A stretch of DNA of 64,000 nucleotides from Escherichia phage allfine, in sequence record MN850633.1; one strand, 5' to 3'. The notes beneath the pieces were generated by a model. The model did no database searches and was not told the DNA's origin. It worked only from the letters and a program-made list of their open reading frames with translations. A program made the position numbers and the translations under genes. Shown here piece by piece: positions 1 to 54,179 of the stretch. How positions within the stretch are numbered: the first letter of the stretch is position 1; each line of letters starts with the position of its first letter.

Positions 1-24
1 ACAAGAACTTATTGACATTGAGTA

Positions 25-258
25 TTGGAGACATCAAAAATGACACTTGCAGACGTTATTCAGCAACTTCACGACAATTGCTACACTCCAGAGATGATTC
101 AGGAGATGCTTATTGTAGTGATGCCTAGTAAGTTCGTAAAAGGTTTTAATAGTGACTCTTTAAGGTCTGCACACATTCTTATTGTTGAAGGGAAGATTGC
201 AAAAGACCGCACTGGAGTCCTTAAGGGTGAACGTATTGATATTGGCTTATCCTTTTAA
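25..258 (+). CDS. hypothetical protein (77 aa)
   Basis: ORF in track; co-oriented with downstream early genes; no recognisable motif. Confidence 0.35.
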   Translation: METSKMTLADVIQQLHDNCYTPEMIQEMLIVVMPSKFVKGFNSDSLRSAHILIVEGKIAKDRTGVLKGERIDIGLSF

Positions 259-267
259 GGGAAAACT

Positions 268-474
268 ATGCAAGTCTTAGTAAACTATACCTATCGTTAT
301 GATGTTGTTCACTCCACTACAACTGTAGCTCAACGTAATCCAATAGTTCCACGAGAAGGTGAGTTTGTTCGCATTGAGGGTTGGACTTACACTGTGGAAA
401 GCATCATTCATAAGTTTGATGTTGCTGGTGATGTTCAAGTTATCGACGTAGAGATTGGTGGTAAGAGAAAATGA
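268..474 (+). CDS. hypothetical protein (68 aa)
   Basis: ORF in track; stop overlaps ligase start (ATGA coupling at 471-474). Confidence 0.4.
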   Translation: MQVLVNYTYRYDVVHSTTTVAQRNPIVPREGEFVRIEGWTYTVESIIHKFDVAGDVQVIDVEIGGKRK

Positions 475-1574
475 CAATTCTGTACAAACAAAATAAAGAT
501 GGTTCCTTCAACGTCTGGTCATGTGTTGCTGTAGGTGACAAAGTTATTACAACCTACGGTAAAGAAAATGGCAAGATGATGTTTGAAGAGTACACAGCAG
601 AACCGAAAAACATCGGTAAAAAGAATGAGCGTAACGCTGAACAGCAAGCTCTCTTTGAAGTTGCTGCTAAGTATAAAAAGCAAGTTGACCGTAAAGGCTA
701 CGCTTACACAAAAGAGTCTGCAAAGAATACTGAGAAGGTAGGTGTACAGCTTGCTCATGATGCTGCAAAGGTTAGCCATGCAAAGTATCTGAAGTTCCCT
801 GCTGATGCTCAACCGAAGCTTGATGGTGTACGTTGTAGGATTTCAAGGCACTTGAGTATTGGAAGTGTATTTACAGCATATTCTCGTGAGAATACTGTTT
901 ACAAAATCCCTACTGAACTAATACCTGACATTATGGCAATGTTAAGGCTCCACAAAGATGTTGATGAATTTGATGGAGAGATTTATGCTCATGGGTGGGA
1001 CTTAGAAGATATTGTATCCATGATTAAAAATGAAGACAATCCTGACAGACACTTACTTAAGTTCTACTGGTATGATATCTGTGACAGTACTAAAACGTGG
1101 CCTGAGCGTAGAGATATTATTGAGACTTCACCATTGAATGACTTTAGAGACGGCTGTAAAGTTGTCCCTGTTAAATCTCGTCGTGTAAATTCTTGGGAAG
1201 AGTTTGATGAAGCTCATGATAAGTGGGTTGAAGCTAAGTTTGAAGGTGCAATGTACCGTTCAATCTCTGAAGAATCTTTCTACGAGTGTGGTCACCGTTC
1301 ATACTTCTTGATTAAACACAAGAAGATGCACACTGAAGAGTTTAAAGTGACTGGTGTAAAGACCGATAAGCGTGGTCATGGCAAGTTCGTTGTAGAGACT
1401 CTTCCTAATGTCTTTGTAGATGTTTCATGGAAAACTACCCATGAGAAGAAGAAGTATCTTGCTGAACATCCTGAAGAGTTTATCGGGAAACCTTTAACGG
1501 TTCAGTTCCAGAAGATGACTCGTAAGGGGTCTTTACAGTTCCCTGTAGGGCTAGTTATTAGGGATTATGAATAA
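471..1574 (+). CDS. ATP-dependent DNA ligase
   Basis: Adenylation motif I KxDGxR present as PKLDGVRC; size 367 aa typical of phage ATP-dependent ligases. Confidence 0.75.
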   Translation: MTILYKQNKDGSFNVWSCVAVGDKVITTYGKENGKMMFEEYTAEPKNIGKKNERNAEQQALFEVAAKYKKQVDRKGYAYTKESAKNTEKVGVQLAHDAAKVSHAKYLKFPADAQPKLDGVRCRISRHLSIGSVFTAYSRENTVYKIPTELIPDIMAMLRLHKDVDEFDGEIYAHGWDLEDIVSMIKNEDNPDRHLLKFYWYDICDSTKTWPERRDIIETSPLNDFRDGCKVVPVKSRRVNSWEEFDEAHDKWVEAKFEGAMYRSISEESFYECGHRSYFLIKHKKMHTEEFKVTGVKTDKRGHGKFVVETLPNVFVDVSWKTTHEKKKYLAEHPEEFIGKPLTVQFQKMTRKGSLQFPVGLVIRDYE

Positions 1575-1577
1575 ACT

Positions 1578-1724
1578 ATGTTCAGTACAGTCATTCTGTT
1601 TATACTGGTTGTCTTTGTATTGTCATACGTTGCAAGTAAGCTTTTGGACACATCTTTTGCAATGGGTGTCTTGTTTACAATCTTTTGTTTCGTGACACAT
1701 ATAGCTATCAGAACTTTTTTATAA
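1578..1724 (+). CDS. small hydrophobic peptide (48 aa, two predicted TM segments)
   Basis: Read by eye: ATG at 1578 directly after ligase stop, translation MFSTVILFILVVFVLSYVAS...; below 60 aa track cutoff; opposite-strand track ORF 1565-1795 considered spurious. Confidence 0.3.
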   Translation: MFSTVILFILVVFVLSYVASKLLDTSFAMGVLFTIFCFVTHIAIRTFL

Positions 1725-1731
1725 AAAGTTG

Positions 1732-1759
1732 TTGACATAGAAAATTTGGTGAGTATACT
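1732..1759 (+). promoter_or_regulatory. sigma70-like promoter TTGACA-16-TATACT
   Basis: TTGACA at 1732-1737, TATACT at 1754-1759, 16 nt spacer. Confidence 0.45.
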
Positions 1760-1789
1760 GAGCAGCATAAACCAACGGGTACTCACCAG

Positions 1790-2150
1790 CATCACTTAAG
1801 AGTCTTCTAAGAGGGTTTTTAAGTGATGTCCGGTAGGGCGAGGTCGGGTTTGGTATTGTCCGGTATGGTCGGGTAAAGTACAGTACGGCAAGGTAAAGTA
1901 GGGTATGGGTAGTTAATCGGAGCTACATTAAAATTCGATTGCATCACTTAAGAGCCTTTAAATTATACTCGATAGGTTATCTCATAGGGTTTTTAAGTAA
2001 TGTTTGGCAAGGCAAGGTGCAGCCCGGTCGGGTAAGGCGCGGTGAGGTATGGTAAAGTGTGGGTGGATGGTAGTAGCCACGTTAAAAATCTACCAAGTTT
2101 CTAAAGAGTCTTCTGTTGAGGGTTCTTTACAAACAACTTAACAATCAACT
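1790..2150 (+). repeat. structured non-coding element, copy 1: hairpin, GGT-periodic tract, conserved ~50 nt box, second hairpin, second GGT tract, hairpin TGGTAG/CTACCA
   Basis: 10 bp inverted repeat CATCACTTAA/TTAAGTGATG at 1790-1828; box 1904-1955 identical to 3313-3363 apart from one substitution; G/T-rich GGT-phased tracts; no ORF. Confidence 0.6.
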
Positions 2151-2152
2151 AA

Positions 2153-2758
<606 letters not shown>

Positions 2759-2760
2759 TT

Positions 2761-3201
2761 ATGAATACAAAAGCATTAGCAGCAAAGTTTAGTTACGGTG
2801 ATACTGTATCACATTCTGAGATGGACACCTTCTTAGGTATTGTGAAGCCAACTTATCAAGGTGACATTGTTAAGTACGAAGATGAAATGAAGGCTTATGC
2901 ACTTACACGTCTAAACCGACTTGAGAAGTTTATTGAAAAGCTTCTTAAAGAAGAGAAGATTTATCTGGTTGCTTCAATGGGTGTTGGTTATCGTGTGGTT
3001 GAACCTAAGCATCAAGCAACTATTGCAAAACGTAAAATGTCTGGTAAGATTGGTCGTGCTTTAAAGCAAGCCACTCAAGCGATTGAGAATGTGAACACTA
3101 TGGCACTTAGTCATCAAGAACGTTCACGACTGATTGAACAGCAAAACCATTTAGCTGCTATGAAAGCTAACATTAACAAGCAACGTAGAAAACCTTTCTA
3201 A
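2761..3201 (+). CDS. hypothetical protein (146 aa)
   Basis: ORF in track, tightly packed with upstream gene. Confidence 0.5.
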   Translation: MNTKALAAKFSYGDTVSHSEMDTFLGIVKPTYQGDIVKYEDEMKAYALTRLNRLEKFIEKLLKEEKIYLVASMGVGYRVVEPKHQATIAKRKMSGKIGRALKQATQAIENVNTMALSHQERSRLIEQQNHLAAMKANINKQRRKPF

Positions 3202-3210
3202 GTTGACTAG

Positions 3211-3236
3211 GAAGCCTCTTCGGAGGCTCCTTTTTA
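3211..3236 (+). terminator. intrinsic terminator
   Basis: Hairpin AGCCTC-TTCG-GAGGCT followed by TTTTT at 3231-3235. Confidence 0.55.
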
Positions 3237-3239
3237 AAA

Positions 3240-3500
3240 GGTCTTTAAACAGGGTCTTTTAATAAGGTAGGATAGGGTGGTGTATGGTTTGGTAAGGTTG
3301 TGTAAGGTAAGGTATGGGTAGTTAATCGGAGCTACATTAAAATTCGATTACATCACTTAAGAGTCTTCTAAGAGGATTTTTAAGTGATGCTCTGTCGGGT
3401 TTGGTCGGGTTTGGTAGGGTGTGGCTCGGTATGGTGTGGTTTGGTGTGGTAAGGTATGGAAGGATGGCAGTAGCCTTATAAAAAATCTGCCAAATAAGCT
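3240..3500 (+). repeat. structured non-coding element, copy 2 (paralog of 1790-2150)
   Basis: Same module order: GGT-periodic tract, conserved box 3313-3363, hairpin 3351-3389, GGT tract, hairpin TGGCAG/CTGCCA 3465-3492 with compensatory change relative to copy 1. Confidence 0.6.
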
Positions 3501-3510
3501 ATAAAATCTG

Positions 3511-3539
3511 TTGACAAGTCAGGTGTTATAGCTTATTTT
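3511..3539 (+). promoter_or_regulatory. candidate sigma70-like promoter TTGACA-17-TATTTT
   Basis: TTGACA at 3511-3516; weak -10 at 3534-3539; RBS GAGG before ATG 3584. Confidence 0.3.
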
Positions 3540-3583
3540 TATACTCAATGTAATACAAAATTTAATATAACTTTGAGGTCATT

Positions 3584-3967
3584 ATGAAAAAGATTTTATT
3601 AGCTGCTGCAATGGTTATGGCAATGAATTTACCAGTCAATGCAACAGAACTCCCAAATGTGGACTTATCAGGTGTTCCAGAAGACACTTGCCAGATTGTT
3701 AAAGGTGTTGCTCTAGCTAATGGTGAGCTACTTAAACCAATCTCTGAAGAGTCTTTGACAGAGATGACTGATAAGGTAACTGACTATCAATATCGCGTTC
3801 TTGCAGAGTATTTCCTGCAATCTGCAAACATTAAAGAGAAACACCATGATGATATTGATGTACAGGCGATGCTCAACCACCGTATCCAGTTTAAAGAAGA
3901 TTTGATGCAAAAAGCTATGTACGGTGTTGAGTATTTCTTAGAAAACAGAAGCTGCACAGGTATTTGA
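3584..3967 (+). CDS. secreted/periplasmic protein with N-terminal signal peptide
   Basis: N-terminus MKKILLAAAMVMAMNLPVNA is signal-peptide-like. Confidence 0.5.
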   Translation: MKKILLAAAMVMAMNLPVNATELPNVDLSGVPEDTCQIVKGVALANGELLKPISEESLTEMTDKVTDYQYRVLAEYFLQSANIKEKHHDDIDVQAMLNHRIQFKEDLMQKAMYGVEYFLENRSCTGI

Positions 3968-3968
3968 T

Positions 3969-4181
3969 ATGGCTCTTAAAAAGTTACATCCCAGAAGCGG
4001 TTATGGTAAGATAATTGACGATACAGATGGCTTTACAGTCTTTACAGTTATCTGTCAAGATGATTCACAGATTGAAAAGGCTCTTGATGATTATCTTAAC
4101 GATGAACGTGAAAAGGTTAGGGCTACAAACATAGATTCATTGATTGACACTTCACGCAAACGGAAGAAGAAAGATGAATGA
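3969..4181 (+). CDS. hypothetical protein (70 aa)
   Basis: ORF in track. Confidence 0.4.
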   Translation: MALKKLHPRSGYGKIIDDTDGFTVFTVICQDDSQIEKALDDYLNDEREKVRATNIDSLIDTSRKRKKKDE

Positions 4182-4473
4182 GGTTTTTGACCCTTATGCC
4201 CCACAAGATGATTGGGAGGCTGATAGAGAGACTGAAATGGAGAGTTATATTTGTCCAATGGATGTAGACGAAATGAGAGGCTTCGTTGCACATCGTTTTA
4301 AGAGAGAGATTAAATCCAGAGGTCTTTCTCAAGAGCAAGTTGCTAAAATTTGTGGTATCTCTCAAGCTCGTGTATCCAACATAATCCACCTCACTGGGAA
4401 TGTTTCTCTTGAGTATATGTTGGAAGTATGTGAAAAATTTGGTGTTAATTTCAATTTAAGGTTGGCAGATTAA
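4174..4473 (+). CDS. helix-turn-helix DNA-binding protein
   Basis: Track ORF 4144-4473, start moved to internal ATG 4174; HTH-like segment LSQEQVAKICGISQARVSNIIHL. Confidence 0.45.
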   Translation: MNEVFDPYAPQDDWEADRETEMESYICPMDVDEMRGFVAHRFKREIKSRGLSQEQVAKICGISQARVSNIIHLTGNVSLEYMLEVCEKFGVNFNLRLAD

Positions 4474-4474
4474 T

Positions 4475-4834
4475 ATGAAACGTGAAAACATTATCCACTC
4501 TGAAAACTTCGCATTAGGCTTTTATGGTGTACCTACTCACCTTGAAAAGTATTATGGTGTAAAGATTCTTTCCAATCTCATTACGGCTTACAAAGATGGT
4601 AAGATTAAGCATACTGAGAAGAAACGTGTCATGGGTTATATGGCTGTAGGTTCAGCAATCTCGAACATTAAGTTGGAAACAACTAGCAGTCAGATTGTAA
4701 AAGACCACTTCATCAAAGAGCTTTACCAAAATCTTGATGGTGTAGATGTTCAGGCTGTTTGGCTGGATGTTGATGGTCATAACTACACAAGTTTTGTTTT
4801 CAAAAACGATGACATTAAGTGCTTGTTCCCATAA
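4475..4834 (+). CDS. hypothetical protein (119 aa)
   Basis: ORF in track. Confidence 0.45.
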   Translation: MKRENIIHSENFALGFYGVPTHLEKYYGVKILSNLITAYKDGKIKHTEKKRVMGYMAVGSAISNIKLETTSSQIVKDHFIKELYQNLDGVDVQAVWLDVDGHNYTSFVFKNDDIKCLFP

Positions 4835-4847
4835 TAGGTGATTAACT

Positions 4848-5363
4848 ATGATTGATATCTTCTTACAAGATGCTCATGCAGATTTCCTTAAAGAGATGCT
4901 TAAAAAGTTTATGGCTTCACAGTATGAGAATGAAGCATCTTTTAAAATAGTTACATGTGGCGATGAAGCTGGTTTTGTTGAGATTGAGCATGAAGGTACT
5001 GGAAAGACTGTTTGTAAGTTACCTGATAGTATGTTCTCTAAAACGTTCTTAACAAAGACTAGTATAAATGTTAAGCTTGTACCACAGATTGAAACATACT
5101 CTGGTACAGATTACCCTAAAGGGTTTAAGTCACTGATGAAGTACTTCTTAGATGACTTTGTGGGTAATCTTCTGAGGGAGGTAAAAGAAAGTCGTACAGT
5201 GTTAACTGTAGAGAACATGGGAGGAACTATAAAGGTTACTTCTGACTGTTTTGTTATGAGCCTCTTCGACTTCGTTCCTAAGAACTTTGATGGTATTCTG
5301 GATGAAGAAGATGACTGTGTAGACTTTATATTGGTTCTTGAGCCAGTTTTTGAGGTTAAATAG
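4848..5363 (+). CDS. hypothetical protein (171 aa)
   Basis: ORF in track. Confidence 0.45.
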   Translation: MIDIFLQDAHADFLKEMLKKFMASQYENEASFKIVTCGDEAGFVEIEHEGTGKTVCKLPDSMFSKTFLTKTSINVKLVPQIETYSGTDYPKGFKSLMKYFLDDFVGNLLREVKESRTVLTVENMGGTIKVTSDCFVMSLFDFVPKNFDGILDEEDDCVDFILVLEPVFEVK

Positions 5364-5624
5364 ATGAAAATTGAACACTGCTATGAGTCTGATGGAACAC
5401 CTATCCGATGCCCACATTGTGGATGTACAGACTTACAAGGTGAAGTTCATGTGATTGTTAATGGTCATATAGCTGAAGAGAGTACAACATGTGTTGGTTG
5501 TGGTGAGCATCTATCATTCTGGGCTTATGGTTCATACCAACCTACACCACACTTAATCTACCATAGCAATAAAGCTGTGAAGAATGTTATCAACTGGTTT
5601 ATTAAGAAAGGATTTACAAAATGA
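5364..5624 (+). CDS. zinc-ribbon protein
   Basis: CPHCGC ... CVGCGEH, two CxxC pairs. Confidence 0.45.
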   Translation: MKIEHCYESDGTPIRCPHCGCTDLQGEVHVIVNGHIAEESTTCVGCGEHLSFWAYGSYQPTPHLIYHSNKAVKNVINWFIKKGFTK

Positions 5625-6166
5625 TTAAATTAATCTTTGCAAGTGGTGAAAATGGTGAGTTTGGTACTCCAACTGGTATGCCGTGGCCTCGACATAAACA
5701 GGACATGCAAGAGTTTAAGAGACTCACTAAAAATAACTTAGTAGTCATGGGTAATGAGACTTTTAAGACTCTGGGTAGTAAACCTTTACCAGAACGTGCA
5801 AACCTCATCTTAACAAATTCTGTACCATACTTAGGCATAGACTTTGGCAAAGATGATGTAATGTATGCTAAAGCCAGTAAAGAGTCATTTGGAGCATTTT
5901 TGAAGTATCTTGATAGCTCTATTGATGAAGATGTCTTTGTAATTGGTGGTGCAGGTATCCTTGTCAATGCTTTACCGTATGCTAGTGTGGTGTTCCATAC
6001 TGTTTTCCATAAAGTTACTGAAGAGGCCACTGTGCATTTACCTTTTGAAAACTTCTTTGAGAAGCTGTATGATAACCGTGTGTTTACAAAGGTACAGTCA
6101 AAACCATCAGAGGATGGTAAAGCAACTTTTGAAATTTATGTTCCACAAGTAAAAGGACACTTTTGA
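5621..6166 (+). CDS. dihydrofolate reductase
   Basis: N-terminal LIFA...MPW signature and length 181 aa typical of DHFR; immediately upstream of thymidylate synthase. Confidence 0.75.
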   Translation: MIKLIFASGENGEFGTPTGMPWPRHKQDMQEFKRLTKNNLVVMGNETFKTLGSKPLPERANLILTNSVPYLGIDFGKDDVMYAKASKESFGAFLKYLDSSIDEDVFVIGGAGILVNALPYASVVFHTVFHKVTEEATVHLPFENFFEKLYDNRVFTKVQSKPSEDGKATFEIYVPQVKGHF

Positions 6167-11287: not shown

Positions 11288-19303
<8,016 letters not shown>

Positions 19304-19304
<1 letters not shown>

Positions 19305-19543
19305 TACATTTTTCCTGCTCTTCTAAGTTCGTTGTAAGCAATTTCCTCTTTATACGACCTCTGAATCTCAAGAAATTGTCTCAATGATAATAAATCAGAG
19401 AATGTCATAGCAAAGAGTTGGTCAAGTGTTTCTTTACACCCTTCCATACCATAAATAGCAAGCACAAATTTCATCTCGTCTGCTTCTTCATAGGTTGCCT
19501 CTACAGCAGCATCAGTCAGTGGTGTCTGTAGAGTATTACCCAT
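19304..19543 (-). CDS. tail assembly chaperone
   Basis: Small acidic ORF between tube and tape measure. Confidence 0.4.
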
Positions 19544-19545
19544 GT

Positions 19546-19944
19546 TTACTGAGAAGTTAGGCTTTTGAAAATGCTTGCTTCGAAAAAACTTCCGAAGTTT
19601 GCCTCCAGCGCAAATGCTAAGTAATCAATAAACTCACCGTAGTTTGCTTGGAAGTACGTATCAATATTAAGTGGGAAGTCATCAACAGTTGCCCCTTGAA
19701 ATAACAGGGTTGCCATCTCTTCAAGGTTAATTTCTTCAATTCTGTCAAAACAAGCTTCAACAAGCTCTTTAAATGGAACCATTGGAGCTTCTTTCTTATC
19801 TTTATCCGTAAGACTTGATAGCATCTGTGCAAAGGTTGGGACAACAATCTTACCCAACTTCATAGACATCTTAATACCATCTCTTGCCCCAAGCAGAACG
19901 ATATTTACTTTCTTACCATTAATTACTCTAGATTCTGTTTTCAT
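19546..19944 (-). CDS. tail assembly chaperone
   Basis: Position only. Confidence 0.4.
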   Translation of the reverse strand: MKTESRVINGKKVNIVLLGARDGIKMSMKLGKIVVPTFAQMLSSLTDKDKKEAPMVPFKELVEACFDRIEEINLEEMATLLFQGATVDDFPLNIDTYFQANYGEFIDYLAFALEANFGSFFEASIFKSLTSQ

Positions 19945-21831: not shown

Positions 21832-22431
21832 TTATTTTACCCCTTTGGAGTCTACATCTAGATGGATAGTATATTCTGGTGGCTCTTGTCCTTCTTCATA
21901 AACCAACTCACCATCAACAATGACACGCTCAATAATACTTCCACGTTCATCCTTCAGGACTGAGTTTTTTACAAGAGTTACAACAAGAGGTGCAGAATTT
22001 TCGAAATCTGTATTGAGATAAGTATAGTCATTCGGGATAGCTCCAGTGTCTAGTACTGTAGCTCCTGTTTCTTCAAGGATTAAATCTCTGACTGAACTCA
22101 TCTCTAATCGTTGTTTAAGCTCAAGCATAATACTGTGAGCACCTTTACCATTCACCGTAATTAATACTGGAATCTGAAAAGCAATTCTGTAACAAACTAC
22201 ATCATCCTCAACAAACTTATCAAGAACCCAACCATAAGGTGTTGCAGCATCTTGACAGTATACGGTGATAAATGGTTGGTCAGGTTTTAAACCTTTGTCA
22301 TTTGAGTTATCAGAAGGGTAAGCTCTAATTACGTTTGGCCTATTATTTTTATCACGAGCTAGTCTGTGACCAATAACATCCACTAAGGTTCTAACTAGAC
22401 CTTTTTCAAGTTCTGCTGTTTCTAACTGCAT
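21832..22431 (-). CDS. neck/tail completion protein
   Basis: Position only. Confidence 0.35.
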   Translation of the reverse strand: MQLETAELEKGLVRTLVDVIGHRLARDKNNRPNVIRAYPSDNSNDKGLKPDQPFITVYCQDAATPYGWVLDKFVEDDVVCYRIAFQIPVLITVNGKGAHSIMLELKQRLEMSSVRDLILEETGATVLDTGAIPNDYTYLNTDFENSAPLVVTLVKNSVLKDERGSIIERVIVDGELVYEEGQEPPEYTIHLDVDSKGVK

Positions 22432-44769: not shown

Positions 44770-45890
44770 ATGTGAATAAAGTATCTATCCTTTTTAACAA
44801 CCTTCTTAATCTTACTCTCTATATAGTTATATAGTACTATATAGTATCTTAGTATCTATCTAGTGGTCTTAATAGCCCCTCTGTATAACCCTTCTAACAA
44901 GCCCTCTAACAAGCCATCTAAACACTCTTCTAACAAGCCTTCTAAACAACCTATACAATCATCTTAACCATCTCTCTATATCCTCTTAGAAGCTCCTATA
45001 CACCTCTTAATCTCTAGGTTAGCTATGTTACCCTCTATAGGTGTTCACTAGGTACTACTAAGCCTCTATATAGACTGTTTTAACAAACTTAACAGGAATA
45101 TCTTCACAGACCTTATCTCACAAGGTCTAACACGGTACTAACAAGGTATCTTATAAGCCTGTTATTACCTGTATTTTTAAAAGACTGTCTAGGTAATTAT
45201 TCAGAATCTTAAAATTTTTATAAAATAGGACTATCAAGTCATTTTTTAGGGTCTTTGAAGGAACTGAAAAATATCTGATTAGGATGTATATCTGCTTGGT
45301 AGCCCTTAACAGCTCCCTTACAAGTACTTTGCAAAATTTTAAAATATCCTTAACAATTTCTTAACAACTCTCTCAAGCTCTTAACAAATCTTCAAAGGTC
45401 TTAACAGATTCTTAACAGAACTAACAAGGATGTAACAGTTTCTTAACAGTTGATACATAGTCTTTACAGAGTCTTAACAGATGACTAACAAGAGTTAATT
45501 AGTTAATTTTAAAGAGTTATTTTGTTAAGATAATTAACAAGTTCCTAACAAGTGTTTAATCTTTTTAACAAGCTATTAACATGGTCACTATCTCTTGGTC
45601 TATAGTTCCCTTTCCTTCTTAGTGATTCTTTAAACATACCTCTTAAAAGCTCTCTATAGCTCTTCATAGGCTCTTTTAAGTCTCTTCCTAGTAGTTACAC
45701 CCCAACTGTACAGACACCTCTTTATAGGGCTTTACAGGAGCTTTTAAGGCTATGTCAAAGACTCTTACAAGGCTTTTACGTGGTCTTAACAGAGATTTAA
45801 CAAGGGGCTAACAAGTTGCTAACAAGTGCCTTAAAAGCATAACTATGTAGGGATTGTTAAGAAATTGTTAAGAAAATGTTAAGGGGGCTA
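44770..45890. repeat. array of more than 30 TTAACAR / CTAACAAG heptamer motifs, densest at 45349-45590, partly phased at 10-11 bp
   Basis: Direct reading: CTTAACAATTT CTTAACAACTC ... CTTAACAGATT CTTAACAGAA CTAACAAGGA ...; inverted copies TTGTTAAG at 45851-45880; no ORF of 60 aa or more. Confidence 0.6.
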
Positions 45891-47416: not shown

Positions 47417-47758
47417 TTAACTGATGAATATTTTTTCAGGCTTTACATAGCTGATACGTTGACTTTTTAGAAGGTCATCCCAGATTATCGCGGCAATGTG
47501 ACCATATCCGGCCTCACGTAAGAGCTTCATTGCTTTACTTCTCGTTTCAAAACGGCTTGCGTAGTACTCACTATTCAGAGTTGTTTTCTTCCCTTCATTG
47601 TCTACATGAATAATCTGCATTACGTGAAAGGGGCTTGTGTCCTCGCCTTTGTTCCACTGTTCAAAGTATTTTAGGCACTGCATAGGCGACATCTTATCAC
47701 TAACCTGAGTTGACCAAGATGCGCCAGCTTTATCGGTAATTACGGTTACATAAGCCAT
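47417..47758 (-). CDS. hypothetical protein (113 aa)
   Basis: ORF preceded by family-A cassette. Confidence 0.5.
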   Translation of the reverse strand: MAYVTVITDKAGASWSTQVSDKMSPMQCLKYFEQWNKGEDTSPFHVMQIIHVDNEGKKTTLNSEYYASRFETRSKAMKLLREAGYGHIAAIIWDDLLKSQRISYVKPEKIFIS

Positions 47759-47848
47759 TTTTAGAATCTCCAGTTTAGGACTTCATTTAGTGGGGAAGGT
47801 CATTCCCTCCCCGTTGATTGACAATTTACAGACTTTTATCAGGCTTGT

Positions 47849-48082
47849 CTAGTCTTTTTCAATGATAATTTCATATTGACCGTCAACGCTGTCAAAATAG
47901 ATGCCGTCTTTATCTTCTGTCTTAAAGTAGCATTGTATATCATCACTTGCGGGATAGTCTTGCCGTGCTATCTGGCAAACTTGAATAGCATTTTCTTTAC
48001 TTCCTGTAAACTCTTCAAGCCCTTTAAAATCGCATGAATGACCATTACAGATGGAAAGGATGAGGTAAACGGTTGTAAGCAT
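47849..48082 (-). CDS. hypothetical small Cys-containing protein (77 aa)
   Basis: ORF in track. Confidence 0.4.
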   Translation of the reverse strand: MLTTVYLILSICNGHSCDFKGLEEFTGSKENAIQVCQIARQDYPASDDIQCYFKTEDKDGIYFDSVDGQYEIIIEKD

Positions 48083-49573: not shown

Positions 49574-49846
49574 TTACACTAAATGCAGCTTTTTACCTTT
49601 TACTATGATGTAACTCGATGCGCTATTGCTTTGCACATCCTGATAAATTCTGCGCAAACGGCCTTCGTAGTATACTTTCCAACTGGTTGGAATCTTTTTC
49701 CCGTATCCTGTAGCAGTTTTTTGTAGTCCTGCAAGTTGCCAATCTAAGATATGTTGTTCGGCTTGTAAATCTTCGAAGTGCATTACACCGTTCACATAGT
49801 GACGAATGGTTACGTTTAAGGTGCGACCGTTGTTAGTAGTGTACAT
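49574..49846 (-). CDS. hypothetical protein (90 aa)
   Basis: ORF preceded by family-A cassette. Confidence 0.5.
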   Translation of the reverse strand: MYTTNNGRTLNVTIRHYVNGVMHFEDLQAEQHILDWQLAGLQKTATGYGKKIPTSWKVYYEGRLRRIYQDVQSNSASSYIIVKGKKLHLV

Positions 49847-49933
49847 TTTGAATCTCCTAGTTTAAGGACTTTACTTAGTGGGGAGGTTATTACCTCCCGT
49901 TGATTAGTAATTTACTTGTTTTAAAAACCAAAA

Positions 49934-50266: not shown

Positions 50267-50556
50267 GGTGTTTCCTCTTTACGTGATACTTTGCCATTTA
50301 CAGTTATCTCATAGGATTCTAATAAGTCACTTTTAGACTTTACTGGACTTTTAAAAGTATCATCATAAATATTTACTTGCAATACAGGTTTTTTATACTC
50401 CCTGCAACTATTCCATAAGCAAATCACTACGCGACGGCCTTTTATTTTGCCGTGCAACCATTCCATAACATCATGATTATTTCTTGATGTCTCGATAAAA
50501 TCAATTTTGTTGAGTAATTTGCTCAGATTTTCACGCACTTGATTTGATAATTTCAT
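50260..50556 (-). CDS. hypothetical protein (98 aa)
   Basis: ORF preceded by family-B-variant cassette. Confidence 0.45.
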   Translation of the reverse strand: MKLSNQVRENLSKLLNKIDFIETSRNNHDVMEWLHGKIKGRRVVICLWNSCREYKKPVLQVNIYDDTFKSPVKSKSDLLESYEITVNGKVSRKEETPC

Positions 50557-50648
50557 TTTAGAATCTCCTAGTTTAAGGGCTTTATTTGATAAATCTCTTT
50601 ATCTGGGGCTATCTTACCAGCTTGATAACCCCGTGTAAAGAAATCTAT

Positions 50649-51596: not shown

Positions 51597-51977
51597 TCAG
51601 TTAATTTTGAAAATTGTCACATAGCCGTCACTGCCGATTATTTGAGACACTCCAGCTTTTTCCACTGAATAGCCCATATTTTCAAGATGATAAACAGCAT
51701 CATCATAACCATATGCGCCACCCTGATAACGTCTCTTATCGCATCTTATCAGGTTTTTACCACGTCCTGCAAGTGCATTCAGTACAGCTTTTTCACTTGA
51801 TAGCGTACCATCTAACATGGTTGCCGTGTAATGGTTGATTTTATTCCCGTTAATATCATACTTAAAATTGAATGCGTGAATAACAATCAATTTGCCGTTA
51901 AATTTTTCATCAAGTGACTTCTCCAGTGCGTTGCGGAAGTTGTCTTTGTTGATGAATTTCGGTGCACGATAAGCCAT
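51597..51977 (-). CDS. hypothetical protein (126 aa)
   Basis: ORF preceded by family-B cassette. Confidence 0.5.
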   Translation of the reverse strand: MAYRAPKFINKDNFRNALEKSLDEKFNGKLIVIHAFNFKYDINGNKINHYTATMLDGTLSSEKAVLNALAGRGKNLIRCDKRRYQGGAYGYDDAVYHLENMGYSVEKAGVSQIIGSDGYVTIFKIN

Positions 51978-52065
51978 TTTTGAATCTCCTAGTTTAAGGT
52001 TAATGTAGTAAAGCTCTTTATCTGGGGCTTACTTTATCGAACTATAAGCCCCTTGTAAAGTACTT

Positions 52066-52287
52066 TTATCTATCGTAATAGTAAACCGCTGTCTGTTTTA
52101 TATGTCGCTTTGTATTCTTCGTAAGGTAGCAATTAGAGTTGATTGCCGTTTCTACATAGTTGCAATAATCAGCTTCTGATATTCTACGCCATGCGCCGCA
52201 CACTTGCATGTAAAAACGTTTTACCTTTGTATTAACGTTGGTTGTAACCATCAATTCACGGCTGTAAATCATTATTTCGCGCTCCAT
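52066..52287 (-). CDS. hypothetical Cys-containing protein (73 aa)
   Basis: ORF in track. Confidence 0.4.
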   Translation of the reverse strand: MEREIMIYSRELMVTTNVNTKVKRFYMQVCGAWRRISEADYCNYVETAINSNCYLTKNTKRHIKQTAVYYYDR

Positions 52288-52460
52288 TTCTCAAAGAGTT
52301 CAGCAGGGAAACGTTCGCTATAACCTTTTAAGGAAAAAGTGTTATCTTTGTGGATAGCTTCCACCTGATAAACCTTATAAGAACGTATAGTTAGCATTTT
52401 GTAAGAGTATTCGTGCTTAATGTTAACCTCATCGCCAACTTTAATTTTTCTTGATGCCAT
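52272..52460 (-). CDS. hypothetical small protein (62 aa)
   Basis: ORF preceded by shared leader GAATCTCCAGTTTAGGAAG. Confidence 0.4.
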   Translation of the reverse strand: MASRKIKVGDEVNIKHEYSYKMLTIRSYKVYQVEAIHKDNTFSLKGYSERFPAELFEKWSAK

Positions 52461-52699
52461 TTCTTAGATTCTCCAGTTTAGGAAGTGGGCTTGATTGCCC
52501 GTCTGATGCAGATATTAGATAACCATACTCAAAGAGTCAATAGGAATTTTAAAAATATTTTTTTTTGCAAAGATTGTAATGAAACGGGTGCGCGCGACTA
52601 CCATAAAACAGAACTACAATCAAGAATTATTTTTCAATCCGCTACAAATTTTTCTGTTGACTTTTATTTCCAGATGTGGTAGCCTTGTGAGAAATGGCG

Positions 52700-52925
52700 A
52701 CATCCCTACCTGCACCCACCTACCTGCACAATTCTAAAATGATTTTTCTTGCCCGACCTGATTTTTCTCTGCACGTTTTGAAAATGAAAAAGCTCTTTGG
52801 AGATTACCTGCACAGTTTGAAAATGAATTTTCCCTTTGGAGTTCAAAATTTTCTCTACAGATTTCTCTACAGAACTCTACCTGCACAATCCTGAAATGAA
52901 AAAGCCCCCCTTACCTGAAAAATTT
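52700..52925. repeat. iteron-like array: four to five copies of TACCTGCACA...AAAATGA units plus 11 bp tandem TTCTCTACAGA
   Basis: TACCTGCAC at 52707, 52721, 52805, 52878 and TTACCTGAAA at 52911; TTCTCTACAGATTTCTCTACAGA at about 52852-52874. Confidence 0.5.
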
Positions 52926-52972
52926 ACCAGATAAGAAAGGCTTAGTCTATTGTGAATACTATACAGAATTTC

Positions 52973-53758
52973 TTAGTTCTTTGCGTCTAAGAAGGTTACT
53001 TCCGGTGAAGAGAAAACCGTCTCGATATCCTCATCATTTCTTGCATAGATGTAAGCATCTGCATCACTGCCAAATGTTACTGCAATTCTGTGATTGCTCT
53101 TCGACAGGTGGGTAACTAGAGCGTTACTTAGAGACATCTTCTCAACCGGAGGGTTACTTTGATGTATCTTACCTTTTCTTCGTCTGAAGAGGGTAACTGT
53201 ATCATCTGTGAACATTACTACACCTGCAAAGTATTCTGGTTCACAGTAGTTATTCCAACCTGAGCGTAACTTGTGGTACATCTCTCCTTCGTAGACATAC
53301 AGATAAACATCTACACTCTTCATCACCTGATTAATGATAACTGTGACGGCTTGAGGGTCTAGCCCACCGATACCTGCACCAATCATAGGTAGACCAACTT
53401 TCTTCAACTGATTGACTTCACAGTATCTGTTAAGCTGTTTCAAAGATGATTCTAAAGCACTGTATCGGGCATCTTTACCAGTCTTAAGCTGAGTGTAAAG
53501 GTTAGCTATTCGACCTTGTTTTAAACGTGCTACAGAGAAATTACCCAGTAAATTTTCACAGGGTTTGTGTCCTATACCACCTGCATATAGATAAACTTCT
53601 GTATCGGTCTCATATGCTTTTGGGTAAAGTTTAGAAATCTTGTCAGCGATACCTGCACCCATTAAATTCATACAGTTGCAACCGTGACCGATGATGTCAA
53701 ACTTACCTTTATCAAATGCGGCAAAGATATCACCATTGATTATTTTTACAATACCCAT
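52973..53758 (-). CDS. macro-domain protein of TARG1/OARD1/DarG type (ADP-ribose hydrolase fold) with about 110 aa C-terminal extension
   Basis: INGDIFAAF ... HGCNCMNLMGAGIA ... LPMIGAGIGGLD parallels TARG1 KGDLFA ... HCISEDCRMGAGIA ... MPRIGCGLD (TARG1 recalled from memory). Confidence 0.6.
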   Translation of the reverse strand: MGIVKIINGDIFAAFDKGKFDIIGHGCNCMNLMGAGIADKISKLYPKAYETDTEVYLYAGGIGHKPCENLLGNFSVARLKQGRIANLYTQLKTGKDARYSALESSLKQLNRYCEVNQLKKVGLPMIGAGIGGLDPQAVTVIINQVMKSVDVYLYVYEGEMYHKLRSGWNNYCEPEYFAGVVMFTDDTVTLFRRRKGKIHQSNPPVEKMSLSNALVTHLSKSNHRIAVTFGSDADAYIYARNDEDIETVFSSPEVTFLDAKN

Positions 53759-53959
53759 TTAACATCTCTCCCAAGATTCTTTATCTTCTGAAGGTTTTAC
53801 ACGTTGTCCTTCGTGGTCTACCCAGATACATCCACAACCTTCACAGATTACTGGCATTGCATAGCCAGCTTTAAAGTCATCTTCAGTGATAAGACCTTTT
53901 AAGTCACCTGTATCACGTCCGAACATTTCGATAGAACAGTCTTTGCAGAAGTCAGCCAT
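53759..53959 (-). CDS. small zinc-ribbon protein (66 aa)
   Basis: Track ORF 53759-54049 truncated to MADFCKDCS start preceded by AGAGG; CxxC ... CxGC pairs. Confidence 0.4.
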   Translation of the reverse strand: MADFCKDCSIEMFGRDTGDLKGLITEDDFKAGYAMPVICEGCGCIWVDHEGQRVKPSEDKESWERC

Positions 53960-54179
53960 GAATAATTGCCTCTTGAATGATGATGCCTTTACCACAACGA
54001 CTTTTAAAGTCTTCCAACGGTTGGGAGATGAAGCCGCGCAAGCAATCACTAAATACTAAGTTTTTCCTGTAAGCTATCACAAAGTTTGTTGTAAACGGGA
54101 TGACTTCATTTCTTCCAATGAATACTGCTGACCGGATGAGTTTCCGTGTCTTTTTATCTCTGGCTAGAATTACTCTCAT
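53952..54179 (-). CDS. hypothetical protein (75 aa)
   Basis: ORF fills otherwise empty interval; start uncertain. Confidence 0.3.
   Translation of the reverse strand: MRVILARDKKTRKLIRSAVFIGRNEVIPFTTNFVIAYRKNLVFSDCLRGFISQPLEDFKSRCGKGIIIQEAIIHG

Follow-up and report, generated by a model that had tools for sequence, protein, structure and literature searches.

A four-unit direct-repeat array conserved across four phage genera as a candidate protein-binding DNA element

We analyzed a 64,000-nucleotide stretch of Escherichia phage allfine (record MN850633.1; hereafter the window) and found that a gene-free gap of 512 bp (52461-52972), adjoining a gene for a macro-domain protein (the macro gene), carries an array of four direct repeats of ~40 bp each. 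The array is retained in four phage genera and is under purifying selection. Our leading, still tentative reading is that it forms an iteron-like, cis-acting, protein-binding DNA array, with both binding and function inferred; the main rival is that it encodes a repeat RNA. Over a 2-kb stretch around the array, identity is 99.6% with Escherichia phage momo and 91-96% with many further Felixounavirus genomes; by sequence, the window belongs to Felixounavirus (Felix-O1-type phages).

The repeat array and its conservation

Each unit consists of TGCAC, seven nucleotides and AAATGA, followed by a 5-nt A/T tract (Table 1). Together the units occupy 52725-52904, or ~200 bp in all with the half-site. 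The composite motif CTGCACNNTNNNRAAATGA has four exact plus-strand copies, starting at 52724, 52769, 52808 and 52881 with spacings of 45, 39 and 73, and no further exact copy in the window. When up to two mismatches were allowed, seven matches were found compared with 1.73 +/- 1.30 in shuffled sequences, none of 100 shuffles reaching seven. Since TACCTGCAC alone was not over-represented across the window (17 matches, 12.3 expected), the signal is carried by the composite motif and its clustering.

A repeat search of the gap returned families of 34, 28 and 11 nt and, within the array, no T5-type paired boxes, inverted repeats or palindromes. Sequence inspection, this search and Tandem Repeats Finder (TRF) all recovered the array that the initial annotation had reported, as four to five copies plus a tandem repeat. 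Its direct, asymmetric, iteron-like organization was likewise borne out by four full units in one orientation. The tandem repeat that had been described with it is genuine, but its unit is 12 bp according to TRF, not 11. The 12-bp copies are half-site-like and resemble the left half of unit b, TTTCTCTGCACG; two CTnTnCAGA copies of the tandem are retained in Suspvirus, Mooglevirus and phage Si3.

Every gene between ~46 and 64 kb of the window lies on the minus strand, so the array is 3' of the macro gene and upstream of a 62-aa gene. The initial annotation had placed it upstream of the macro gene, which is incorrect: it stands downstream of that gene's terminator. The gap, first put at ~470 bp, also proved longer. 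Reading along the minus strand, as transcription runs, one meets in turn the macro gene, its terminator, units d, c, b and a, a variable or G-rich segment, and back-to-back promoters.

Table 1. Features in and around the gene-free gap, with window coordinates
Feature	Coordinates	Strand	Basis or remark
62-aa gene (PHROG 15633)	52272-52460	-	Left flank of gap
Sigma-70-type early promoter, TTGACT-17-TAATAT	52512-52540	-	Promoter scan
Conserved A/T-rich non-coding block between promoters, contains AATCAAGAATTATTTTTCAATCCGCTACAAATTTTTCT	52576-52663		Diversity 0.054, alignment
Candidate promoter: TTGACT (52657-52662), 17 nt, TGgTAGCCT extended -10 (52680-52685)	52657-52685	+	Read from sequence
Haplotype-variable 52-bp segment	52666-52717		Two haplotypes; nucleotide diversity 0.32
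Extra left half-site CCTACCTGCAC	52705-52715	+	Only in window-type haplotype
Unit a: TACC-TGCAC-AATTCTA-AAATGA-TTTTT	52721-52747	+	Repeat and motif scans, alignment
Unit b: TCTC-TGCAC-GTTTTGA-AAATGA-AAAAA	52766-52792	+	Repeat and motif scans, alignment
Unit c: TACC-TGCAC-AGTTTGA-AAATGA-ATTTT	52805-52831	+	Repeat and motif scans, alignment
12-bp tandem TTTCTCTACAGA x2.0	52850-52873	+	TRF score 48
Unit d: TACC-TGCAC-AATCCTG-AAATGA-AAAAA	52878-52904	+	Repeat and motif scans, alignment
Strong intrinsic terminator of macro gene: 17-bp stem (52943-52902) and T-rich tail	52892-52943	-	Terminator scan
Macro-domain ("phosphatase") gene	52973-53758	-	Open reading frame; Pfam Macro E=1e-7; PHROG 335

The gap matched 288 phage records. 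Identity to Suspvirus and Mooglevirus was ~70% over ~450 bp, and in Erwinia and Salmonella phages of the genus Kolesnikvirus only the repeat units matched (gap query 265-367). In an alignment of 16 representatives, four units were present in every genus (Felixounavirus, Suspvirus, Mooglevirus and Kolesnikvirus), always behind the macro gene, which adjoins the array in all four genera as its invariant upstream neighbor; Si3 has three units. Spacings were 45/39/73 in Felixounavirus, 45/41/75 in Suspvirus and Mooglevirus, and 39/37/37 in Kolesnikvirus. TGCAC, AAAT and the final A of AAATGA were nearly invariant, with rare exceptions, while the penultimate base was sometimes A (AAATAA). The distance from TGCAC to AAATGA was 7 nt in nearly all of 63 retrieved units, and these 7 nt vary freely. 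The tract after AAATGA is A5, T5 or A2T4, differing by unit, and the tail of unit a, TTTTTCTTGCC(C/A)GACC, is common to E. coli and Erwinia phages. Absence of the repeats from related genomes, which would have spoken against the initial annotation, is thus not what we observed: the array is strongly conserved across four genera.

Nucleotide diversity was calculated for 18 distinct Felixounavirus sequences. Within the macro gene it fell from 0.121 at codon position 3 to 0.024 at position 1 and 0.014 at position 2. The array gave 0.045 (cores 0.025, non-core 0.057), the conserved block 0.054 and the terminator 0.027. Diversity in the array and its cores is therefore 2.7-5 times below that of synonymous-type sites. 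Because array diversity lies so far below that of macro codon position 3, we conclude that the array is under purifying selection, inter-core sequence included. Between genera, the gap (~70%) is as conserved as the adjoining coding sequence.

When IMG/VR was scanned for a two-unit motif, periods of 33-48 bp returned only contigs of 52-94 kb, a size range that would fit whole or partial Ounavirinae genomes, and periods of 24-32 bp gave no match. A three-unit pattern run against bacterial genomes yielded, among the matches listed, unrelated tandem repeats; a two-unit pattern run against metagenomes yielded mostly unrelated satellites and coding repeats.

Protein binding at the DNA level

If the array binds protein as DNA, its four units would be direct, asymmetric, bipartite sites for a sequence-specific protein. 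Each site would comprise TGCAC, exactly 7 bp, AAATGA and a 5-bp A/T tract, so that its two blocks would lie about one helical turn apart, and the extra half-sites CTACCTGCAC and CTCTACAGA would supply further contacts. A phage or host protein loading on the four sites would form a nucleoprotein complex that either marks a transcription-activated replication origin or controls the boundary of two early transcription units. Of these two roles we prefer the origin, the boundary role being nearly as plausible, because the locus is unique in the genome, A/T-rich and flanked by a promoter, and because the phage has a T7-type replisome, with genes for a primase-helicase and a PolA-type polymerase.

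Recognition of double-stranded DNA is favored by the rigid bipartite core, the A5/T5/A2T4 tract, the half-sites, the single locus and the lack of an RNA fold. A5, T5 and A2T4 are alike as duplex DNA but not as RNA, which favors recognition at the DNA level. The four units also present what is expected of iterons, namely at least three direct repeats in one orientation with a 17-23-bp core.

The surroundings of the array suit an origin. The minus-strand promoter TTGACT-17-TAATAT is conserved in all genera (including relatives L002, L008 and L010) and annotated in ASO1A; it would drive the ~6 kb terminal block of small genes. Most lineages also carry a G-rich segment prone to R-loops and G-quadruplexes (G4) in the haplotype-variable interval: most Ounavirinae have there a perfect 31-bp homopurine G-rich mirror repeat, GGGGAGAGGGGGAG-TAA-GAGGGGGAGAGGGG (for example relatives L002, 2640-2690, and L156, 10097-10130). 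In the window, momo, Barry and Meda, this interval is filled by an unrelated sequence of equal length. The mirror repeat constitutes an H-DNA motif as well as a canonical G4 motif and is located just past the conserved TTGACT.

Two groups of known origins resemble the array in part. Like the iteron origins lambda ori, P1 oriR, R6K and RK2, it has at least three direct asymmetric repeats with a conserved core of ~18-23 bp, at a single locus in A/T-rich non-coding surroundings, near a promoter that might activate it. It differs from them in spacing (~22 bp there, 37-45 and 73 bp here), in the constraint on its inter-core sequence, in having no adjacent Rep- or O-type initiator gene and, in E. 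coli and Salmonella phages, in having no good DnaA boxes. With the T7 phi1.1A/B promoters and their AT-rich region, and with the T4 R-loop origins oriF and oriG, it shares a host-type promoter leading into an A/T-rich gene-free stretch; in most relatives the G-rich (RNA-like strand) segment right after the promoter favors R-loops, and the primase-helicase and PolA-type polymerase of the phage add to the likeness. In contrast, the window lineage lacks the G-rich segment, the G-rich haplotype has a weak -10 element, and the T7 and T4 origins themselves have no four sequence-specific repeats.

Several observations weigh against a protein-binding array. Regular, helically phased spacing (~22 bp or multiples) was not seen in any genus measured, and the spacings of 37-45 bp and 73 bp are irregular and longer than those of classical 19-22-bp iterons. 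No match to a DNA-binding or Rep family was found among the proteins flanking the array. Simple 18-bp binding sites do not require the constraint seen between the cores (diversity 0.057). Predicted intrinsic curvature (wedge model) had local peaks at the 99th percentile, with an ordinary mean over the array. GC skew does not switch at the array; in this phage it follows transcription and is thus uninformative for origins. The TTAACA-repeat array, together with the direct terminal repeat (DTR) near 45.9 kb, is as good a candidate for the origin; that the present array is distinct from it, as the initial annotation held, is supported. Finally, an RNA gene would also account for the plausible plus-strand promoter pointing toward the array and for the hairpin with which it ends. 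The sigma-70, sigma-54, sigma-E, CRP, IHF, Fis, LexA, PhoB, NtrC and DnaA consensus sequences were compared with the units by eye, and none fits all of them.

We found no description of the array in the Felix O1 and wV8 literature and annotations that we consulted or in the PhageMaP study of Bas63, nor did searching for transcriptome studies yield one. The Felix O1 genome paper (2010) lists other direct repeats and not this array, and states that the regulation of transcription is not understood. The wV8 record carries nine dispersed repeat families (DR_1 to DR_9), with only a dubious open reading frame (ORF) and no repeat feature over the array. These families and the T4-type promoter/stem-loop cassettes are alike in being repeated, regulatory-looking sequences between small early genes; however, the wV8 repeats are dispersed over many intergenic regions, whereas the array motif is confined to one locus. 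The array is best filed with iteron-like or cis-acting repeats conserved across the subfamily. Relatives of Felix O1 are classic typing phages widely used in biocontrol and therapy, and the array offers a testable handle on their origin or regulation; if it is an origin or master regulatory site, it would matter for engineering Felix O1-like phages.

Alternative readings of the array

The main rival to protein binding is an RNA gene. The candidate plus-strand promoter would give rise to a ~250-nt RNA with four ~40-nt repeats, ending at a shared hairpin. It would counter a defense toxin, either ToxN-like (type III) or another A-rich-specific endoribonuclease, by serving as decoy or pseudo-antitoxin, or it might sequester another RNA-binding factor. 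We regard this as unlikely but keep it under serious consideration, because it would be the most consequential reading if true. Phage pseudo-ToxI is an established counter-defense, reportedly employed by Pectobacterium phage PhiTE, and ToxN homologues are common on plasmids of E. coli, Salmonella, Enterobacter and Klebsiella. At 37-45 nt, the repeat period falls within the type III antitoxin range (36-38 nt, read from true loci), and the sequence between the cores is constrained too. AAAU is present in all units and GAAAU in unit d; ToxN has been published to cleave at AA^AU and GAA^AU (PMC8860590).

Promoter and terminator evidence for such an RNA is mixed. Kolesnikvirus has, at the equivalent place, a good plus-strand promoter, TTGACG-18-TATACT, back-to-back with the minus-strand one. 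The window's candidate, with a predicted start near 52692 and aimed into the array, scores under the -10 threshold of the scan, its -35 element and the upstream A/T block being conserved; in the common G-rich haplotype the -10 is only TAAGAG, which is poor. A hairpin directly follows the last unit, but the plus-strand U-tract after it is weak. In the window haplotype, a 66-aa ORF derived from the repeats (52694-52894, plus strand) has its ATG only 1-2 nt past the predicted transcription start, so that such a message would be leaderless; other haplotypes do not conserve this ORF.

Scanning metagenomes with the core motif retrieved genuine toxIN loci, whose 37-nt ToxI repeat, AGGTGATGCACAGCCTTTAAATGAGCGAGTTATAAGT, carries TGCAC-N7-AAATGA, a recovery partly forced by the search pattern. 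These loci (L320, 2259-2848, minus strand; also L285, L304, L317 and L344) have two 37-nt ToxI repeats upstream of a ToxN/AbiQ homologue with 31-39% identity to plasmid ToxN. With an nhmmer profile built from four enterobacterial ToxI families, no match appeared in the array even at E<=1000, and BLAST of the array against 5,426 E. coli genomes and PLSDB plasmids returned none either. The four plasmid-borne ToxI families and the phage units have in common only short ordered motifs (CTACC ... TGC ... GAAAT). On the same searches, the possibility that the array is a copy of host DNA (host mimicry) was rejected, BLAST of E. coli genomes and plasmids and the ToxI hidden Markov model both being empty.

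In architecture the array resembles ToxI, CptI, TenpI and the PhiTE pseudo-ToxI, with tandem units of ~36-45 nt, an A-rich AAAU motif in each, a putative promoter before and a hairpin after; like the PhiTE sequence, it would be a toxin-free copy in a lytic phage. Unlike type III antitoxins, however, the array has no sequence match to an enterobacterial ToxI or a host locus, and its units are heterogeneous (A5 or U5 tracts, differing tails, one 73-nt spacing), having in common only the 18-nt core and the W5 tract, whereas ToxI repeats are near-identical. It is also fixed at four units subfamily-wide and does not expand under selection. No conserved stems and no sign of ToxI-like pseudoknot stems were found, by fold methods that cannot predict pseudoknots. 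There is no toxin gene: the next gene beyond the array is the antisense macro gene, and no plus-strand gene lies downstream. Absence of a toxin gene is expected for a solitary phage mimic, which leaves room for an element that works like an antitoxin.

Folding of the plus strand as a single sequence was no better than that of shuffles (z=+0.78), and the minus-strand value (z=-2.05) derives its signal from the terminator. Alignment folding gave -3.3 kcal/mol for the plus strand and supported only the terminator on the minus strand, the sole helix with compensatory changes across genera. No Rfam family reached its gathering score at E<=10 in the array region; in a control, Rfam also missed genuine ToxI, so it is uninformative on that point. 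On these folds, the alignment fold and Rfam, the array is not a structured RNA or a member of a known RNA family. Clustered regularly interspaced short palindromic repeats (CRISPR), or a mini-CRISPR, were rejected as well: the units are degenerate rather than identical, the would-be "spacers" stay conserved from genus to genus, and there is no Rfam CRISPR match.

It is less probable still, and in our view doubtful, that all Ounavirinae carry a promoter-driven, toxin-less repeat RNA (four ~40-nt units, invariant AAAUGA) serving as a decoy or pseudo-antitoxin for A-rich-specific abortive-infection endoribonucleases, ToxN-like or of an unknown family. Such an RNA would be a subfamily-wide RNA-based anti-defense element beside the macro gene, itself perhaps a counter-defense gene. 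If an anti-defense RNA were confirmed, type III antitoxin mimicry would extend from one laboratory example to a whole subfamily.

We assign a lower probability, and think it rather improbable, that the array is a transcription-boundary element in which degenerate copies of a terminator tail, weak sigma-70 promoter-like sites, or both, insulate the downstream early promoter against read-through or titrate RNA polymerase. The array lies exactly between the terminator and the promoters. The T-tract of the terminator (annotated in KhF2, ASO1A, Barry and wV8) with the downstream flank physically is unit d. On the minus strand, A5 units read GCTTTTTCATTTTC and are terminator-tail-like, and two Kolesnikvirus units resemble promoter sites of the form TTGCCA-17-(G/T)(A/G)AAAT, one found by scan and one by eye. 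However, a G+C-rich stem is present at unit d only, and in E. coli-type units the promoter-like -35 is absent or wrongly spaced. The other early intergenic regions of the phage are ~90 bp and have no such array, and a boundary function leaves the invariant TGCAC unexplained.

A DNA-entry or end-related cis site, comparable to the T5 injection-stop site (iss) and located at the inner boundary of a host-takeover block, is very unlikely. It depends on where the genome ends. Related phages have short exact terminal repeats, a DTR of 608 bp in UAB_Phi87 (PMC4837284) and one of 581 bp in Pr103Blw (PMC8303462). The Bal31-sensitive SpeI fragments of UAB_Phi87, 4322 and 2819 bp (PMC4837284), fit a 6568-bp SpeI fragment at 13014-19582 of JN225449 (expected 6533 bp, 34 bp unexplained), which excludes the gap (21883-22403). 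The record of phage H12, whose source study reported such repeats using PhageTerm, opens at window position 45888/45889, within the TTAACA-repeat region (44.8-46.3 kb). We therefore infer a genome terminus near 45889, and the TTAACA array probably overlaps a boundary of the DTR.

The gap is located 6.6-7.1 kb, or 7.4-8.0% of the genome, from this mapped end, compared with 7.9% for the T5 iss (bioRxiv 10.1101/866236), and ~15 small genes, transcribed toward the end, lie between the two. Like the T5 iss, the array comprises highly conserved untranslated repeats ~8% from the end, at the inner edge of small early genes, and some of its units look like DnaA boxes: Kolesnikvirus units, CTATGCACA, match the DnaA box TTATNCACA at 8/9 positions, and TTATGCACA is among the listed T5 iss DnaA boxes (bioRxiv 10.1101/866236). 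In E. coli and Salmonella phages, by contrast, the corresponding ACCTGCACA has only 6/9 DnaA-box matches. The palindromes, inverted repeats and paired boxes of T5 are missing here, and the array is outside the terminal repeat. The small-gene block is transcribed toward the end, whereas the T5 dmp/A1/A2 genes (T5 positions 1-6022) run rightward, and the T5 model is itself in silico only. We know of no report of two-step injection in Felix O1-like phages.

Four IMG/VR contigs from sample 3300045988 end or start within the gap (L020 and L026 end, L049 and L081 start), some with Nextera adapters. The breaks fall at the center of the mirror repeat, their positions differing by 6-12 nt, and a 9-nt overlap at the junctions (CTCTTACTC) is typical of Tn5; they look like tagmentation at a Tn5 hotspot, or an assembly artifact, at an unusual DNA structure. 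The array or gap was rejected as the genome terminus or DTR: these breaks are Tn5-like and lie in a mirror repeat that the window lacks, and the end maps near 45889.

The least probable reading is a protein-coding or neutral relic, that is, a small repetitive ORF or decayed duplications: open frames do cover the repeats (66 aa, 52694-52894, plus strand; 50 aa, 52734-52886, minus strand), and several GenBank records annotate hypothetical proteins here (Felix O1 ORF31, wV8 gp13, Meda_119), but these ORFs vary between records in strand, frame and length, start mostly with TTG or GTG without a ribosome-binding site and are shifted in frame by the spacings of 37 and 41 nt in Kolesnikvirus, Suspvirus and Mooglevirus, while the low diversity relative to synonymous-type sites speaks against neutrality. 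The gap is thus non-coding, in agreement with the initial annotation, and the "hypothetical proteins" inside the array are probably spurious, which affects their GenBank annotation.

Neighboring genes and further observations

Residues 5-167 of the macro protein match macrodomains in the PDB; its C-terminal ~95 residues have no family match and no sequence match to a solved structure. Spanins and rIIA/rIIB are, in relatives, among the genes upstream of the macro gene (53759-54049 onward, minus strand). On the other side of the gap, the 62-aa gene is found in the window, momo and ASO1A and is missing in most relatives, which have a 68-aa PHROG 5293 gene or a 126-aa PHROG 4495 gene directly after the gap. 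Early genes have thus been shuffled as modules behind a promoter that stays constant.

Three sequences outside the phage genomes proper were also noted. A metagenome-assembled genome of Ignavibacteria (CAVVVP010000010.1; L169, 1290-1440) contains a 32-bp tandem repeat, x4.5, CCGATTGACCCCTTGCACAAATGGAAAATGAG, whose core agrees with the Erwinia-phage unit at 17/20 positions; it sits in a mobile-element-like region by genes for Mu Gam-like and DUF932 proteins. The Staphylococcus phage SA1 record (GU169904.1, labeled 147 kb) contains at 127.6-129.6 kb a Felix-O1-type region with 91% identity, and is probably a mixed or chimeric assembly. Contig IMGVR_UViG_3300045988_004180 is chimeric: its phage part breaks off between units b and a of the array, following ...CAGGTCGGG, and the sequence joined there, unrelated to the phage, is possibly bacterial.

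Between the small early genes at 47.2-52.0 kb, short intergenic sequences recur many times (for example at 51973-52009, 50554-50587, 49844-49916 and 47754-47863). They correspond to DR features of the wV8 annotation and probably serve as cassettes of promoters or terminators.

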